From a virus: 64,000 bases of DNA. Position 1 is the first letter of the stretch, and every line of letters begins with the position of its first letter. The stretch is taken from positions 1 to 64,000 of IMG/VR virus record IMGVR_UViG_3300032246_002821; one strand, given 5' to 3'. Made by a program: the position numbers and the translations under genes. The notes beneath the pieces were generated by a model. It was not told where the DNA came from. It made no database searches and saw only the letters and a program-made list of their open reading frames with translations. This document shows positions 3,100 through 47,400 of this stretch, piece after piece.

Positions 3100-4314
3100 A
3101 TGGAAAATTGTAAACCCCTTAAAAAATGTCTGTGCTGTGGTAACACAGCACTCCACCTGGTGTTGGATATGGGCCAACAACCTCTAGCAAACAGCTTCAA
3201 AGCCACAGCCACCGAAGCAGAAGATGCATATCCGCTGGCAGTGAACTATTGTCCAGATTGCAGCCATCTGCAACTCACACACGCCGTGGCTCCTGAGATC
3301 ATGTTCAAAAACTACCTGTATGTGTCAGGCACCAGCCTGACTATGCAGAATTATTTCCAATGGTTCGCAGGATTTGTCACGGAATATTTTCCCGAGGTTA
3401 AACCCAGGACAGTGCTGGAGATCGGCTGTAATGACGGTAGCCAGCTGAATTATTTCAAACGTTATGGGCTGGACACATATGGCATAGATCCTGCGGAAAA
3501 CATCTATCCCATCAGCAGCCGGAATCACAAGATCATATGTGATTTTTTCACACCTGAAAGTGCTGCCCAGATAGACAAGATCCCAGACATCATCTATGCA
3601 CAGAACGTGTTCGCACACCAGGATGATCCTGAAACGTTCCTGAAACTGTGCAAGCAAGTGATGGGTACCAGCAGCCTGTTGTTCATACAGAACAGCCAGA
3701 GCGCAATGATAGCCAACAACGAATTCGACACTATCTATCACGAGCATCGCAACTTCTTTAACGTGCTGAGTATGCGTACACTGGCACAGAATGTGGGACT
3801 CAATCTGATAGATGTGTTCCGTGGCACCATCCACGGTGGATCAGACATCTTCGTGTTCAGTAGCTATCGCAGCAGCCCAGCACGTATTCAGGGCCTGGTG
3901 GATATGGAACGTGCTGCTGGACTACACGATATCAAGACCTATACAGATTGGGCTACCAGAGCACGTGAGACCACGGAGCAGCTGGCTATGGTGCTGGATG
4001 GTCAGCGTAAATACCATAACCATTTGATAGTGGGATATGGTGCTCCGGCCAAAGGTAATACACTTTTGAACTATGGTAAGATATCGCTGGATTTCATCAT
4101 CGATGACAACCCCCTGAAACAGGGCAAGTTTACTCCTGGGCAAAGCATACCAGTTGCGACCATAGATGAGCTGAAAAAATATCCGGATCGCAGCATATGC
4201 TTCGTGCCATTGGCTTGGAATTTCTTCGATGAGATCCGTGGCAGGATCAAAAAAGTCAGGAACAACAAAAATGACACATTTGTACGATATTTTCCAGATA
4301 TCACAATTCAATAA
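3100..4314 (+). CDS. NDP-hexose C-methyltransferase (Zn-binding N-terminus, SAM domain, C-terminal domain)
   Basis: CLCCG and YCPDCSHLQL Zn motifs, LEIGCNDG SAM motif, FDTIYHEH, GYGAPAKGNTLLN, IIDDNPLKQG. Confidence 0.9.
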   Translation: MENCKPLKKCLCCGNTALHLVLDMGQQPLANSFKATATEAEDAYPLAVNYCPDCSHLQLTHAVAPEIMFKNYLYVSGTSLTMQNYFQWFAGFVTEYFPEVKPRTVLEIGCNDGSQLNYFKRYGLDTYGIDPAENIYPISSRNHKIICDFFTPESAAQIDKIPDIIYAQNVFAHQDDPETFLKLCKQVMGTSSLLFIQNSQSAMIANNEFDTIYHEHRNFFNVLSMRTLAQNVGLNLIDVFRGTIHGGSDIFVFSSYRSSPARIQGLVDMERAAGLHDIKTYTDWATRARETTEQLAMVLDGQRKYHNHLIVGYGAPAKGNTLLNYGKISLDFIIDDNPLKQGKFTPGQSIPVATIDELKKYPDRSICFVPLAWNFFDEIRGRIKKVRNNKNDTFVRYFPDITIQ

Positions 4315-4360
4315 ATATATCGATAGTTTTTACAAAACAGTCAAACCGGAGCAAAACACA

Positions 4361-4681
4361 ATGCGTGTGGAAGAAATCATTTCAGAGGCAGACGAACCAC
4401 TGTTCATCGGTGGACATCGTGTTCCACGTAGCCATCCCATGTATGATGTGCTGATGCGTAAGGCTGCTGAGATTAAGGCACAGGAAGAACCAGCTGCAGA
4501 AGAACCACGTAAGAAACCACGTATGAGTGTTCGTGCTGCCAGTAGAGAAGTACCAGAGGAACCTGTAGCTGAACCTGTAAAAGAACCAGAAAAGAAATCA
4601 GACTGGAGCCTGGGTGGTGTGGATGCCATGCACCAGGCAGCACACAGACAGAAAAAAGACAGATACTGGCCACACAGATGA
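4361..4681 (+). CDS. Hypothetical late protein, probably virion-internal
   Basis: GGAG SD before ATG 4361 (MRVEEIISEA); ATAAATA at 4311. The ORF-track start at 4229 is an upstream extension. Confidence 0.65.
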   Translation: MRVEEIISEADEPLFIGGHRVPRSHPMYDVLMRKAAEIKAQEEPAAEEPRKKPRMSVRAASREVPEEPVAEPVKEPEKKSDWSLGGVDAMHQAAHRQKKDRYWPHR

Positions 4682-5295
4682 GGGCTAAAGAATTCATATC
4701 CGAATCGGATACAGATGACAAAATAGATAAACCAAAACAAACGCAGCAACCAGAATTGCCGTTTGGGAAGGGTCCGGGTATACCTTTAGATCAACACAAT
4801 ATGACCGAACCTAAAAAGATAGAACCTTTCGATCCCCTCAATGCCATAGCACAGCTGCCTGTACCTGCATCATCAGGAGCATCTGGTAAAAATACAGGAC
4901 CTGCTCCCAATCTGGGCCCAGCTGTCAAGAATGTAGTGGTGCCACCACCAGAACAAGGTGGATTGCTCAATGGCAGGGTGCCAGCTAAACCAGAAGATGT
5001 GACGCATGGTTACAGGAACATGCATCCAGCAGAACTGCAAGGGGCACAGAGTTCAGGATATTTTGAAAAGAATCCCAATCCCAGTCCCAGGATAGATTGG
5101 CCAGCAGACAACAAATATTGGGCATCAGGCGATTCCCAAGGGCATTTTGGTCGCGATTGGAAAAACAAAGAAGATAATGTCAGAGTTCGTGTACCAGTAG
5201 GGATGATTCCCGATGAAACGGCGGTAGATGTAAATCACGCAGAAATTTATAACAAAAATACTGGTGAATGGATGCCAGCTGCAAATTTTAAATAA
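4678..5295 (+). CDS. Hypothetical late protein with a Pro-rich linker and a possible ART-like C-terminal domain
   Basis: ATGA overlap with the previous gene; MRAKEFISES N-terminus; HGYRNMHPAELQGAQSSGYF...KYWAS. Confidence 0.6.
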   Translation: MRAKEFISESDTDDKIDKPKQTQQPELPFGKGPGIPLDQHNMTEPKKIEPFDPLNAIAQLPVPASSGASGKNTGPAPNLGPAVKNVVVPPPEQGGLLNGRVPAKPEDVTHGYRNMHPAELQGAQSSGYFEKNPNPSPRIDWPADNKYWASGDSQGHFGRDWKNKEDNVRVRVPVGMIPDETAVDVNHAEIYNKNTGEWMPAANFK

Positions 5296-5321
5296 AAAAA
5301 ACCGGCGCTAGCCGGTTTTTT
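5294..5321. terminator. Bidirectional intrinsic terminator
   Basis: A8-CCGGC-GCTA-GCCGG-T6 between convergent transcription units. Confidence 0.85.
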
Positions 5322-5576
5322 CCTTATACAATACCCTGCTCTAACCCGGGCCAGGTCCAGCTACCCAGATGCTTCAGTTGATGCAAATGGGCCTAGTTTG
5401 CCATTGTATGTAAACTGATACACAATACCCTTCAGATACTCTTGATATCTCCTATGGGCCACGATTTGGCTTCTGATCCGCCGGATCAGTGTTAGTTCAA
5501 GCCATTGTGTATCCACGCAAACAGATCCGGGCTCCTACAGCTCAGATCGCCTCCCCCGTCAGAGGGGGGTTTCAGT
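5322..5576 (-). ncRNA. Candidate structured ncRNA with two tandem similar domains (unknown family)
   Basis: No credible ORF. Stems 5417-5426/5504-5513 and 5326-5332/5403-5409 close two units that share ACAAUGGC..AACUA and AGGGUAUUGU; further hairpins lie inside and upstream. Confidence 0.5.
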
Positions 5577-5939
5577 TCAGGCGTTGCGTGTGATGTAATT
5601 GATACGAACCTTGTCCGCACCAAAATATTCTTTGACCACAGCGATGACATCGTCGATCTCGTAGGTCTTGCAACTGAACACATCCAGGTACATGGTGTTG
5701 TCACGTTCCACAAAGTGAGCAGCCAGGTTGCTGGTCTCGATCAACTGCATCATACTGTAACCAGCCTTGCCAGGATCGTGTGTAGCGAATCGTGCTACGA
5801 TAGGTTCACCGTAAGCGACCATATCGATCCTACGAATTAATTCTTTAGTGAAAGCAGTGATGTTGTCTCCGTCGCTGATCTTGGCATTGTCGCAGCCAGA
5901 GCAGTCGAGAAGGAGGTGAAATCCCCAGTATGTTGACAT
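5577..5939 (-). CDS. speD: Pyruvoyl-dependent S-adenosylmethionine decarboxylase family proenzyme
   Basis: GFHLLLDCSGC, QLIETSNLAAHF (processing Ser) and YLDVFSCK motifs. Confidence 0.85.
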   Translation of the reverse strand: MSTYWGFHLLLDCSGCDNAKISDGDNITAFTKELIRRIDMVAYGEPIVARFATHDPGKAGYSMMQLIETSNLAAHFVERDNTMYLDVFSCKTYEIDDVIAVVKEYFGADKVRINYITRNA

Positions 5940-5990
5940 TATGTCCTCCAGTAATAGAAATATATTTATTATCTACATAGATAATCGGTT

Positions 5991-6542
5991 TTATTTTGGC
6001 CAGCGGCCCATCTTATTGAAACAATCGTTCAACCTGATGATCTGATTCAAGCAATCATATAGTGCGTGATGCTTGGCTGCTTTGGGCATCTGATGATCAG
6101 GTACCATCTGATAGATGGTTCGTGCATCTCTCACTTGCCAGAACTGCCAGGCGTTGCGGATATTGTGAGTCTTGTTGGCTGATTCCAGGATTGGAAAGTC
6201 GAACGCTGAGCCATTGGCCCAGTAACGATCCGCGCCAGAAGCCCAGGCTTCCAAAGCAATCAGCGCATCGGACAGTGGAAAACGATCAGCTTCACCGAAC
6301 GCTTCTTCGCGGATTAACGGCGCCTGCTGTGCCCACCAATTCATAGTGTCATCACTGACAGTACGACCAGGTTGTTCCAGATCAACACGAGTATAGAAGT
6401 AATCCAGAGTGAAAGGATCTGCAACGTCAGAATAATCTTTGTTGTTGTCGAAACGAATAGCAGCAATGGTCAAAATTGCAGCCTGCGGGTCAGTGGCAAC
6501 TGTTTCCAGATCCACCATAATATCTCTGGGTTTTATAATCAT
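5991..6542 (-). CDS. DEDDh 3'-5' exonuclease (Rv2179c-like)
   Basis: DIMVDLET, WANGSAFDFPIL, VRDARTI and HHALYDC motifs. Confidence 0.85.
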   Translation of the reverse strand: MIIKPRDIMVDLETVATDPQAAILTIAAIRFDNNKDYSDVADPFTLDYFYTRVDLEQPGRTVSDDTMNWWAQQAPLIREEAFGEADRFPLSDALIALEAWASGADRYWANGSAFDFPILESANKTHNIRNAWQFWQVRDARTIYQMVPDHQMPKAAKHHALYDCLNQIIRLNDCFNKMGRWPK

Positions 6543-6768: not shown

Positions 6769-7050
6769 ATGGATATGTTCTTTAAATTAGTAGCAGACGT
6801 AGGTTTCCCCATAGCAGCAGCTTGCGCTATGGGTTATTTCATCTTTCTTACCATCAAATTCATCCTAGCAGGCGTCACAGGGTCTGTCAACGGATTGAAA
6901 GGTATCATCATGGCACTGGATAATCGTGTCAAGACAATGAATCACGATGTTATCAGGATTGACACACTTATGAGCAATGCGCTAGGCGTCAAGCCAGACG
7001 TGGACCGTATCGCCAGAGCAGACGGTAAGAATGATGCGAGGAGAGATTGA
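6769..7050 (+). CDS. Single-TM coiled-coil membrane protein (GFPI motif, YvrJ-like)
   Basis: VADVGFPIAAACAMGYFIF, then LDNRVKTMNHDVIRIDT; paralog of 7296-7775. Confidence 0.65.
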   Translation: MDMFFKLVADVGFPIAAACAMGYFIFLTIKFILAGVTGSVNGLKGIIMALDNRVKTMNHDVIRIDTLMSNALGVKPDVDRIARADGKNDARRD

Positions 7051-7296
7051 TGGATAACCAGACAGTAGCACTAGTTTTTTTTGCTATCTGGGGTTATTTG
7101 TTTATAGAAGAATTTATTAGTTATTTTTTGGGTCACTGATATGATAAAAATTATTAAAAAACATATAGATAATGATATAAAAGAAATTCAAGATGCGTGG
7201 AACAATATGGACACATTTAGTCACGTGTTAGTTATATTGTTTGTGACACTTATATTCATGACCACCGATATGATAATGCACAGGATCCACTTCTGA
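7050..7296 (+). CDS. Two tiny membrane ORFs (7050-7139, 29 aa; 7141-7296, 51 aa)
   Basis: Translationally coupled ORFs, each with one hydrophobic stretch. Confidence 0.4.
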
Positions 7297-7775
7297 TGGA
7301 TATCGCAGAACTCGTCAATAAGTTTGGTTTTCCCATCATCGCAGCAGGGGGTATGGGATACATCATCTATACCATCTGGATATGGGCCACTGTGGAGATT
7401 AAACCTGTATTAAGCGAAGCAAATACCACACTGATAGCACTGATCGACCGCATACGTATGCTGGACAATGATCTGATCAGATTGAACCAGAAATTAAACA
7501 TAGTGCTACAGTTGCGTGGCAAGCAGATCGAAAGTGATAGACACTTGGAAGATGTCAGAAACTCCAGTGAAGCACAGAAGAAAGAACTGCAGGCTGCTGC
7601 TGAACAGAGACAGGCCGCTGAAGAGTTGGCACATCAACACACCGTGGAAGTGAAACCCAACGGCACCGTCGAAGTCACAGAAAAAAACGGAATAGATACT
7701 GTTAAAGTGAGTGTCTCACCTCAAGAAAACAAGGAAAAAGTCAATGGCACAACCAATAAACGAAACCCAAGCTAA
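7296..7775 (+). CDS. Single-TM coiled-coil membrane protein (GFPI motif, YvrJ-like)
   Basis: VNKFGFPIIAAGGMGYII...LIDRIRMLDNDLIRL. Confidence 0.65.
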   Translation: MDIAELVNKFGFPIIAAGGMGYIIYTIWIWATVEIKPVLSEANTTLIALIDRIRMLDNDLIRLNQKLNIVLQLRGKQIESDRHLEDVRNSSEAQKKELQAAAEQRQAAEELAHQHTVEVKPNGTVEVTEKNGIDTVKVSVSPQENKEKVNGTTNKRNPS

Positions 7776-30459: not shown

Positions 30460-30534
30460 TGGTGCCGGTAGAGAGAATCGAACTCCCAATCTACTGATTA
30501 CAAATCAGTTGCCTTACCATTGGGCCATACCGGC
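30460..30534 (-). tRNA. tRNA-Thr(UGU)
   Basis: GCCGGTA/TACCGGC acceptor with encoded ACCA, anticodon arm ACTGA-TTTGTAA-TCAGT, T-loop TTCGATT. Confidence 0.95.
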
Positions 30535-44029: not shown

Positions 44030-44410
44030 CTGTCTGATGTAGCCCTACCTGGTAGACCAGGAATTGTTTTAACTGCGTATCAGCCGCTTACGCAAGCTGG
44101 TTGTACTGGTATTTAGTGGCCCGTTCTGTTGCCGGGTGGAGCCATACCCCTGGTGGTTACGCTGCTAGAGCGAACTCCTGAGTAGCAAAGTTATCGTTTG
44201 CATTTGTCATTTTGCTTTCTGTCTCAGCTGGTCTTTATCACACCTGTCGATCCTATTTCGCCCCCATCAAAGATACACTGACTCGAAACAGTGCCGGCCA
44301 GTCACCTATCAGTTAGTGGTGTGCTATCCAGTGTATCTATGGTGGAGGCGCCGGAGTACTGCCCTCCGGGTCCAGTGAGTTTATTCCACTTCGCCTCAAC
44401 GACATAAGCA
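44030..44410 (-). ncRNA. ssrA: Circularly permuted (two-piece) tmRNA, tag ANDNFATQEFALAA
   Basis: Acceptor piece ends CCGGAG-GGCAGTA-CTCCGG-CGCCTCC-ACCA at 44340; intervening hairpin 44266-44339; coding piece starts GGGGGCGAAATAGGATCGAC at 44265 (G3-U70 pair); tag at 44201-44157. Outer ends approximate. Confidence 0.93.
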
Positions 44411-44440
44411 TATTATTTATAGCATTAAATGTGTAGTATG

Positions 44441-47400
44441 TCAACTATTTCTGGGCGATACATCAAATTGACCGTCGGGCCCTGAACCGCCCCAACCAGT
44501 TGTTTCGTTTCTGTCCATTCCAGTTTTCATTGTTTTGAGTATGGCCTGGAATTGGTTACGTATCTTGTCCAGCAAAGGAGCCAACACCTGGCTTCCCAAC
44601 AATGTGGTGCCCAATGCATCCACATTGGATGGTGTCACTTGGCTGAGCATCTCCAACATACCATATACCATCTGATCTGTCAGGAAGGGATTATCATATT
44701 TGGTTGTACCGATGCTGCCGTATAGGATTTTATTACACAGGCTCAGCATCGTGCCCACGAACATCTCATTATTGGTCAGTAATAACCCTTTTTCGTCTAT
44801 GGTGGCAAACAGGTTCTGGCTACGGTTCAGTCCCACCACATAGCACTTGTTACCGATGACCAGTGTATTACGGCCTACAACTTGGCTCAACACATCCATA
44901 CCTATGGTTTTCTTTACCTGCTCGCTGGTGTTGGCCCATTGTATGTCGTAATATGCTTCGTCGGCCTGTGCAGGCAACATATGAGCAGGATCGTTTCCGC
45001 TGTTGATCAATGCTGTATTTCTCAACTGTATATAGATGTCATCTGGATTTTGTGGTGCAGGAGGATCCAACAACACATCAGGCACTATGGGCATTTCGCC
45101 ATTGTAAACAGTCTGGGCGAAACCATAGGGATCATTGTAATATTTGCTCCTGGGCAGATCGAATCGACCTGTGTCTATACCCAGCTCTGTCAATAATTCT
45201 TTGTTTTTACCCTGACGCATAGCTGCTTTTATGCTGTCTCCCCAGATGTCATCGGTGGCAACTCGTTCGAGGAAATGTCCCATTTCTCCATAACCCATAT
45301 TCATTCCGTGATAGGGCAGCTGGCTTGCGAACACGAATGCGTTGGTGGGGTTCTGATCCAGTCCATCTGTGTTGAAATGATCTATACCGAAAGTCTTGCT
45401 CATATGGTTTTCTTTAAGCAACTGAGCACAACTGGCCAAATGCGCTGCTTCGCTGGCAGCAAGCAGTTTTTTCAATGTGGGATCAGTCGTGTTTTTTATC
45501 ACAGTCAGCTGTGCTTCCACATAAGGGATGAAATCTGTAAGACAAGCGTCCAGACTGGTATAAACTATACCATCATAAGGGGTGGTGCCGAAATCGTGGA
45601 TCACTGGCAGACCAGTTGCACCCAGCGGCACTGCATTGCCATCAGCATCTGTGACATTGCTCAGATATTGAGTGCTGGTGCTGGTATCTCCAGTGATGGG
45701 ATTGGTTATAGTTTTGGTTGGCAGTGTACCTGTCAAACCTCCTGTCAAACTGTTGCTGACATCCGCTGCGTTCACCACTTTTGTCAGTTTATTAGTGGGA
45801 GCACCAGCCCAGGGCACACTCACTTTAGGTGTGATAACGATAGTGTCCACATTAGTGCTGCCAGCTGGAGGTGTGCCTCCACCTGATACACTTGTTCCGT
45901 CAGGAGCAGGTACATTATAGAGACCGTTTATTATGTTGTGCATGATATTCAATCTGCGTTGAAGTTCCTGCCCATCAGTGGTGGCCATCACCGCATCATT
46001 GGCCGCGATGATATGTGGCAGAGTGTCGTTATGCACATAACCAGCACAAGTACCCATGAAATCTGCCATAGTTATTTCGCCTATGGTACCGCCACCGAAA
46101 CCATATGTGCTCTGTATCTCGTCTACGGCAGGCTGATAGTATGGCGTGCTCATCTGGCTCACGTGGTTCAGATCCAGGCCAGGATCCACTTTGCTCAACA
46201 CCATACCCACCTGTTGGAAATTTTCAGCTCTGGTGATGCCCAGGCTCATGAAGTGTTCGCCCAGTTCTTTGAAGTTATTGTGCGGACTGCTCTGGCTCAT
46301 ATTGGGCATCATGGTCTTGTAATCTGTCAGCTGTCCCAGATGTGTAACAGGTGTGCTCACATTGAAATGGCTGCTGACACTAGCCACTGCTGTGGGATCG
46401 CTGATCTGTGTCAGCACATTCTGCACACTCTTGTCGTACCTGGGATCATCCACGCCTGCCAGAGGCACACCAGCTGTGACCAATTTGGTAGTGAGACCTG
46501 TCTTGGTTCCCAGACCAGCATTGAGTATCTGATTGGCCACGTTGCCAGGTTGCATAAGCCTGGTGGGATTACTGGTGCTGAATGTGCCCATATTCAGCAT
46601 ATCAGTGCTGGCGCCAGCAAGATTCCTGGTTAGACTGGTCACTCCATAACTTAGCACATCATTCATATTGCGGAAATTGGCCCCCAACGCACCAGGACCT
46701 TGGGTACCGAATTTTGCCGCACTGGCTTCACTAGCTGCGCCCACCATCTGATTGGCTATGCCGCTATAAGCGTTGGATACGCCCAGATTGTTCATCATTG
46801 CATTGAGGCCGCCGCCCACTGCACCCCCCACCATATTATTGGCCACGTTCTTGATCATACCCTGGAGTCCACCATTGGCCGCGAACTGCTGCATCACGTT
46901 GGGCAGATTCATGGGATTTTGCATTATTGCATTGAGGGGCGCCATCAGTTGTCCCAGTGCTCCATTGATAGCACCATTTGCGATGCCAGCCAGCTGTGGT
47001 GGCAACACTCCTGTGAGGCTGGGTAGTATGCTACCGCCCAGTTGGCTTATCTGTTGCATTATGGGGCCAGTGATGCTGCTCATAGCACTGCCCAATGCTC
47101 CCTGAGCGAATCCACCCAGGCCCTGCCCGCTCATTATGCCGCTGATGCCGCCCTGCAAGGCACCCTTCATCATATCGCCAGCCACACCTGTGATCCCAGC
47201 TGCTCCCAGCGCATTGGTCAACTGGCTGGTCAGTCCATTGGTTGCCATTCCCAGTGCGTTCTGTAATCCAGCTGCGCTCATGAGACTGGCGGGATTCATC
47301 CCGCTGCTGGCACAGCCAGCACCTCCCGCGCCTGGTGCGCCGGGCATACCAGGAGGACCTCCTGCTGCACCAGCAGGTGGTTTGGCATTGGGATCTATGT

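Follow-up and report, generated by a model that had tools for sequence, protein, structure and literature searches.

Few conserved non-coding RNAs are known from phages, and most of them have no assigned function. In T4, the genes rnaC and rnaD (species 1 and 2 RNAs) encode two structured RNAs of ~100–140 nt that are arranged head to tail with a spacing of 6 nt; they stand at the end of a transcription unit, and neither has a known function. Tandem RNA modules are also found in the 3′ UTRs of flaviviruses, where exonuclease-resistant RNAs of ~70–100 nt come right after the stop codon and act against Xrn1. Rfam includes models of exonuclease-resistant RNAs, and the accession for those of flaviviruses is presumably RF03547.

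A tandem structured RNA that likewise closes a transcription unit is described here from a large freshwater T4-like phage. The stretch of DNA that was analysed, referred to as the window, covers positions 1 to 64,000 of an IMG/VR record that is 183 kb long and has an estimated completeness of 54%. On its minus strand lies speD (5577..5939), encoding an S-adenosylmethionine decarboxylase of 120 aa (PF02675, E=1.6e-20; phrog_3125), with the stop codon UGA at 5579-5577. A gene for a DEDDh/Rv2179c-like exonuclease (5991-6542, minus strand; the domain match is weak) is located upstream of speD, and on the other side the plus-strand gene 4678-5295 is convergent with it. The RNA element occupies the minus strand from ~5592, inside the last speD codons, to a terminator at 5293, a length of ~300 nt. 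This bidirectional intrinsic terminator (5293..5323) folds into a 13-bp stem around CCGGC-UAGC-GCCGG with flanking A and U runs; the convergent gene ends at it, and the predicted fold would serve both transcripts. Its stem covaries, an A-U pair being replaced by G-C with pairing kept in 4 of the 12 homologues.

The genes beside the element vary, and PADLOC finds no toxin or defence-system match among them. A comparison of positions 3100-5295 with L004 and L005, two relatives that share synteny, shows that the DNA from speD to a C-methyltransferase gene (3100-4314) is a variable island: the window has two small genes there (4229-4681 and 4678-5295), both of unknown function, and the relatives have ~2.2 kb of unrelated genes. 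Both relatives also keep a pair of adjacent plus-strand paralogues found in the window at 6769-7050 and 7296-7775, which belong to phrog_18771; the second of the two is extended to 159 aa.

How is the RNA built? A preliminary description of the nucleotides that follow the speD stop codon recognised two units, at 5513-5417 and 5409-5326 and 7 nt apart, each opening with ACAAUGGC..AACUA and closing with AGGGUAUUGU, ahead of a terminator. Both units are present with these ends, and a strong terminator follows at 5323-5293. The exact sequence AGGGTATTGT occurs in two copies and nowhere else in the 64 kb. The closing stems differ between the units and both pair, as had been stated, over 10 of 10 bp in one and 7 bp in the other. 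The hairpins CUGAUCC/GGAUCAG, CCCCC/GGGGG, and GAUCUG/CGGAUC can all be found, but the last two are not separate upstream hairpins, as had been thought; they are parts of a third module, U0. Alignment and single folds thus give three similar three-way junctions, each closed by its own helix and each with a second helix that carries an asymmetric AACUA loop (AACUG in the U0 of the window). Such invariant unpaired motifs recur across the modules, and the conserved unit "ends" consist of helix P1 together with the first strands of P2 and P3.

Module U0 (5514..5592, minus strand; MFE fold z=-3.92) begins within the reading frame. Its P1 pairs CACGCAA (5590-5584, the last speD codons) with UUGCGUG (5520-5514); P2, CGCCU/AGGCG, extends into the stop codon and is followed by a GAACUG internal loop and the CCCCC/GGGGG hairpin, and the third arm is the GAUCUG/CGGAUC hairpin. 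The U0 consensus rests on single-sequence folds, in which the junction is recovered in most of the 11 homologues folded, with three different sequences for the second hairpin; a MAFFT alignment across subtypes was misaligned and gave no useful RNAalifold consensus.

Module U1 (5417..5513, minus strand; alignment A3; z=-4.00) has a P1 formed by 5504-5513 with 5417-5426. Its P2 consists of GGCU/AGCC, the AACUA loop (5497-5493), and the hairpin CUGAUCC-GGC-GGAUCAG, and P3 is GCCC/GGGU around a hairpin with an invariant CAAGA loop. A GCCA/UGGC hairpin proposed for this unit can be drawn, but it is paired in only 82.5% of alignment cells, against 100% for the competing GGCU/AGCC and 97.5% for GCCC/GGGU. 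Between U1 and U2 is the linker AGUUUAC (5410..5416), whose sequence and length (7–10 nt) vary among homologues. Module U2 (5326..5409, minus strand; alignment A4) is closed by the P1 AUACAAU/AUUGUAU; its P2, GGC/GCU, bears the AACUA loop (5398-5394) and a hairpin that is long and variable, and the module also has a 5-bp hairpin with an invariant GGCCC loop. This loop and an invariant GGGU beside P1 are proposed to form an H-type pseudoknot. By itself, U2 folds little better than shuffled sequences (z=-1.28).

Homologues of the element come from lake metagenomes and comprise 12 distinct full-length variants, two shorter forms, and partial copies. A metagenome scan with the shared unit ends returned three true homologues (L054, L057, and L058), and the other full-length variants were found through metagenome contigs encoding close SpeD variants. 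The remaining four matches of that scan (L052, L053, L055, and L056) are due to chance. L053, from a sediment metagenome, is a 10-kb contig with no ORF longer than 117 aa and with three exact tandem copies of the 14-nt repeat TGGCAGGGTATTGT at 4257-4298, and is probably eukaryotic or non-coding DNA. Every homologous copy lies directly 3′ of speD and ahead of a terminator, and the next gene is convergent in every case. The number of modules is not fixed: L102 and L103 have U0 and U1 only, while L099 has U0 and a U2-like unit in the absence of U1. In L054, an intact RNA follows a speD allele that is 50% identical to that of the window, and the 5′ strand of U0, including the former stop codon and 17 nt that once ended the coding sequence, is kept there as non-coding DNA. 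The RNA thus behaves as an independent module, of which U0 forms part.

Are the units related to each other, and is their structure maintained by selection? A covariance model built from U2 only (R1, 98.9 bits at U2) finds U1 in the window with 26.5 bits (E=1.5e-4) as its sole further match in the 183-kb record, and it scores 27–37 bits on U1 of the homologues; thus U1 and U2 are homologous. The model R2 gives 116.5 bits at U1 and has no other site in the record. In the alignment of U2, 10 of the 32 pairs are changed on both sides, a value reached by none of 500 shuffles, and 90.6% of cells are paired compared with 30–38% when the partners are slid. For example, P1 of U2 reads ACACAGU/ACUGUGU in L107 in place of AUACAAU/AUUGUAU. 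P2 of U2 is 97% paired, as opposed to 78.8% for a rival outer stem present in the MFE fold. In U1, 96.3% of cells are paired and the CAAGA hairpin contains two compensatory pairs. Covariation speaks neither for nor against P2, P3, and the proposed pseudoknot, all of which are invariant. A whole-element RNAalifold pairing of the speD end with the 3′ end of U2 was rejected, being contradicted by the covariation in L107.

Folding energy does not decide the strand, since both strands fold better than shuffled sequences (z=-3.7 for the minus strand and z=-4.9 for the plus strand). The pairing does differ: on the speD strand it reaches 96.3% in U1 and 90.6% in U2, compared with 89.4% and 76.1% on the opposite strand, and 80 cells are G-U. 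This has a bearing on the idea that the locus acts as DNA, as a miniature mobile element, a set of inverted-repeat sites for protein binding, or a site of recombination. The units do end in inverted repeats, the element borders a variable gene island and is found in only some close relatives, and unit number changes by recombination between unit ends. However, helices keep pairing through G-U intermediates that are valid on one strand only, the compensatory changes fall in internal hairpins that DNA sites would not need, and no further copies occur in the 183-kb record.

A protein-coding explanation can be considered alongside it. The region had been said to contain no credible ORF; a 51-codon GTG ORF does exist on the minus strand (5364-5516), but it is intact only in the window and absent or truncated in 11 of the 12 homologues, 8 of which have no ORF of at least 25 codons on the strand of the element. 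The product of 51 aa has no database homologue. A conserved translated ORF across the region was thus looked for and not found, the 51-codon ORF is rejected as a gene, and its spurious nature here is a warning for annotation. Taken together, a DNA-level element or a small protein gene is very improbable. Unit homology, covariation, strand-specific G-U pairs, and the lack of a conserved ORF bear out the original view of a duplicated structured RNA domain rather than a protein repeat, and the structured RNA on the speD strand is very probably real. The element is 70–98% identical to that of the window, while third codon positions of speD on the same contigs are 48–71% identical; this higher conservation points to purifying selection on the element.

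The element has a narrow distribution. A BLAST search with 5200-6000 found no homologue among GenBank phages. A strict scan of IMG/VR for the end motifs gave no match, and a looser one gave 39, all due to chance and mostly at coding starts. IMG/VR relatives collected through SpeD (L002-L009) have no element, and IMG/VR contigs with 44–96% identical SpeD carry other sequence after the speD stop codon; in L002, whose SpeD is 96% identical, and in sampled SpeD clusters at 77–88% identity, there is only a short hairpin. The element is likewise absent from the whole records of five relatives, including a complete genome of 453 kb, and from L051, a relative found through the convergent gene 4678-5295. 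A weak R1 match in L005 lies inside a coding region, and a pattern scan of bacterial genomes yielded 73 matches, none significant with R1 (best E=0.29), which are attributed to chance. Since the element is missing from close relatives and confined to a narrow clade, it is dispensable. A literature search found nothing on an RNA after speD.

What takes the place of the element when it is missing? Among phages with SpeD more than 90% identical, some carry nothing at this site and some carry a different structured RNA, here called type B. It is ~230 nt long, with two multi-branch domains and a terminator, and was found in contigs ranging from L079 to L092 (L079:1556-1815; L080:1556-1815; L089:1544-1805; L092:426-687). 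One of its hairpins keeps a GGC loop while the stem changes from CAUCC/GGAUG to CCAGC/GCUGG. Neither Rfam nor the models R1 and R2 match type B. The first closing helix of this RNA, CCUGAUCA/UGAUCAGG, extends across the speD stop codon; in both types of RNA, a helix closes over the end of the speD reading frame. In L102 and L103, a 195-aa ORF with a faint NUMOD3 match of the homing-endonuclease type (379-966) precedes speD in place of the exonuclease gene, and a homing endonuclease at this place could be a driver of the cassette-like mosaicism around speD.

Relatives also carry a structure on the other side of speD. A tRNA-like gene is located between the exonuclease gene and speD in several contigs (L093:1095-1170; L089:1096-1171; L054:1967-2042; L104:899-970; L100:897-971; L060:1401-1473), where a TATAAATA motif precedes it. 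The acceptor and T arms are kept among the copies, and the anticodon loop is highly variable: 8–9-nt loops can be read as the four-base anticodons GUUU, GUUC, and UUUU, and other copies read as Val-GAC, Ser-UGA, and Asn-AUU. Instead of decoding, this structure may serve in RNA processing or stability. In the window, only 51 nt separate the exonuclease gene from speD, and no tRNA-like gene is present.

The RNA is probably transcribed together with speD. A consensus scan of the minus strand from speD to the terminator found no sigma-70-like or other promoter-like site inside the element, and the CCCCC/GGGGG hairpin after the speD stop codon is not followed by a U run; both observations argue for co-transcription. 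Moreover, the element starts inside the last speD codons and would thus be the 3′ end of the speD message. The transcript that carries it likely starts at a AATAAATA motif (5963..5970, minus strand), which resembles a T4-type late promoter and lies 24 nt upstream of the speD start.

One role for such a 3′ end would be in cis: the modules and the terminator would shield the speD message from exonucleases or set its 3′ end, with no role in trans. Several features are in keeping with this idea. The element is always at the 3′ end of speD, and its first helix takes in the end of the reading frame, as does that of the unrelated type B RNA. The modules are all junctions, with a possible pseudoknot in U2, an architecture like that of the tandem junction-plus-pseudoknot RNAs that resist exonucleases in flavivirus 3′ UTRs, and relatives also have a tRNA-like structure 5′ of speD. 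Against it, a terminator hairpin is normally enough for 3′ protection, close relatives carry speD with a short hairpin only, and there is no Rfam match. A purely protective role is on its own unlikely, although it is rated as nearly as likely as that of a protein-binding fragment; ligand sensing and self-cleavage are less likely.

Does the RNA belong to a known family? The preliminary description could not match it to one, and a check against Rfam agrees. With Rfam 15 at the gathering threshold, the window contains only a tmRNA and one tRNA, both elsewhere: an alphaproteobacterial-type two-piece tmRNA at 44115-44448 (minus strand, 135.5 bits) and a tRNA-Thr(UGU) at 30460-30534 (minus strand). 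With E-values up to 10, the region of the element gives only matches driven by the terminator, at 10–30 bits compared with cut-offs of 39–114; among them, rsmX scores 20–24 bits, below threshold. The sole CRISPR direct-repeat match in that search, of interest for an RNA anti-CRISPR that would mimic a repeat of the host, is also on the terminator (17 bits, E=7.3). The homologues match no family either. The compensatory changes among these homologues, the collection of which had been proposed as a check, support the helices.

The association with a gene for a SAM-consuming polyamine enzyme raises the question of ligand sensing, in which tandem aptamers for SAM, decarboxylated SAM, a polyamine, or another metabolite would tune speD mRNA stability or termination. 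The linkage to speD is tight in all cases, and tandem junction domains with invariant unpaired nucleotides are also a feature of tandem aptamers. However, the RNA is 3′ of the gene, no gene on the same strand follows, and every homologue has a convergent neighbour (4678-5295 in the window); a classical riboswitch would thus have nothing to control. Alternative pairing of the terminator with any module is not seen, the riboswitch models of Rfam give no match at E-values up to 10, and the U1 junction has no unpaired strands between P1 and P2 or between P3 and P1. A sensor of this kind is improbable; if the RNA does sense a metabolite, it would be a rare example of a 3′-located sensor.

The short variable linkers between units suggest another possibility, namely that the transcript is cut into RNAs of unit length, either by self-cleaving ribozymes or at processing signals that resemble tRNA, and T4 does make two stable RNAs 6 nt apart by processing. 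By contrast, hammerhead, twister, twister-sister, pistol, hatchet, and HDV-like ribozymes give no match at E up to 10 with permissive filters, RF00005 is absent among the E≤10 matches in 5200-5700, and ARAGORN finds nothing at the element and only the tRNA-Thr at 30460-30534 in the window. In the T4 region 69000-74000, searched with filters off, R1 and R2 score at most 9.8 bits, with no match on rnaC or rnaD. Cleavage into units is even less probable than ligand sensing.

Partners of known RNA-binding systems were also sought in the 183-kb record, which is 54% complete. It contains no PF05731 (TROVE) protein that could serve as a Ro partner, although controls matched, and the region of the element has no Y RNA/YrlA match; genes for CsrA and ProQ are absent from the record as well. 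Resemblance to ToxI breaks down on three points: the units are 79–97 nt long and share only their ends, no gene on the same strand follows, and PADLOC finds no toxin. A toxin, CRISPR-repeat, or Ro-type partner for the RNA did not emerge from these searches.

What, then, might the RNA do? The recurring unpaired motifs, the variable number of modules, the replacement by type B, and the helix over the end of the reading frame suggest that some factor recognises the 3′ end of the message. As an inference, a role in binding a protein or in facing a nuclease appears most plausible, and the best guess, offered tentatively and with somewhat less than even confidence, is a 3′ RNA fragment that withstands decay and would bind or block a protein, perhaps a nuclease. 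In this model, the RNA would be transcribed with speD, probably from the late-type AATAAATA promoter, and each module would fold on its own. The closed helices and the terminator would make the tail resistant to decay, so that a stable 3′ fragment would remain once the coding part is gone. This fragment would show up to three copies of one exposed surface, formed by the AACUA bulge and, in U1 and U2, by the GGCCC and CAAGA loops. The partner would probably be a host or phage nuclease or RNA-binding protein that is blocked or titrated by the RNA. Taken singly, the steps deserve differing caution: accumulation as a stable fragment may occur but is somewhat doubtful, and action through binding of a protein is a little more doubtful still.

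A more specific version of the protein-binding model draws an analogy with flaviviruses. Here, the RNA would be a phage counterpart of their exonuclease-resistant RNAs, stalling a host or phage exoribonuclease on the speD message, and the leftover three-module RNA would titrate that enzyme or another RNA-binding protein. This version is rather improbable. If it were true, incomplete decay of an mRNA would supply the phage with a "subgenomic decoy RNA". More generally, a nuclease-blocking or protein-titrating function would give phages a further, RNA-based level of control over the RNA metabolism of their hosts. Whatever its function, the speD RNA provides a workable case among phage RNAs: its build is modular, from three related junction domains, it is attached to the 3′ end of an auxiliary metabolic gene, its unit number varies, and it behaves as a cassette in whose place near-identical phages have another structured RNA or none.

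By the Rfam and other searches, the speD RNA is a new family, although orphan structured RNAs as such are familiar from phages. It is unusual in that three homologous junction modules stand in tandem, that it begins inside a reading frame, and that it is exchanged like a cassette. In comparison with T4 rnaC and rnaD, the spacing of 7 nt between U1 and U2 is close to the 6 nt in T4, but there is no similarity in sequence or structure (R1 and R2 give <10 bits); rnaC and rnaD follow a tRNA cluster, and rnaC has a tRNA-type T arm, whereas the speD RNA follows a protein gene and overlaps its last codons. RsmY/Z/X, CrcZ, and ToxI arrays also present the same exposed motif in a repeated unit, vary in unit number, and end in a terminator. 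Their GGA-loop or A-rich motifs are not the ones conserved in the speD RNA, however, and their repeats are near-identical and 36–45 nt long, in contrast to units of 79–97 nt with differing interiors; unlike in sponge and antitoxin systems, the record has no CsrA gene and no toxin gene follows the RNA. Tandem aptamers, such as the glycine riboswitch and the glutamine (glnA) RNAs of marine bacteria and cyanophages, have homologous junction domains in a row, conserved unpaired nucleotides, and a link to a metabolic gene, but they are located 5′ of the gene they regulate and have an expression platform, whereas the speD RNA is 3′ and no same-strand gene follows. With the exonuclease-resistant RNAs of flaviviruses, the speD RNA shares three-way junctions, conserved unpaired nucleotides, and perhaps a pseudoknot in U2, a likeness of architecture only; those RNAs belong to eukaryotic RNA viruses, and the speD RNA differs from them in having no Rfam match and no evident 5′-end pseudoknot or ring.
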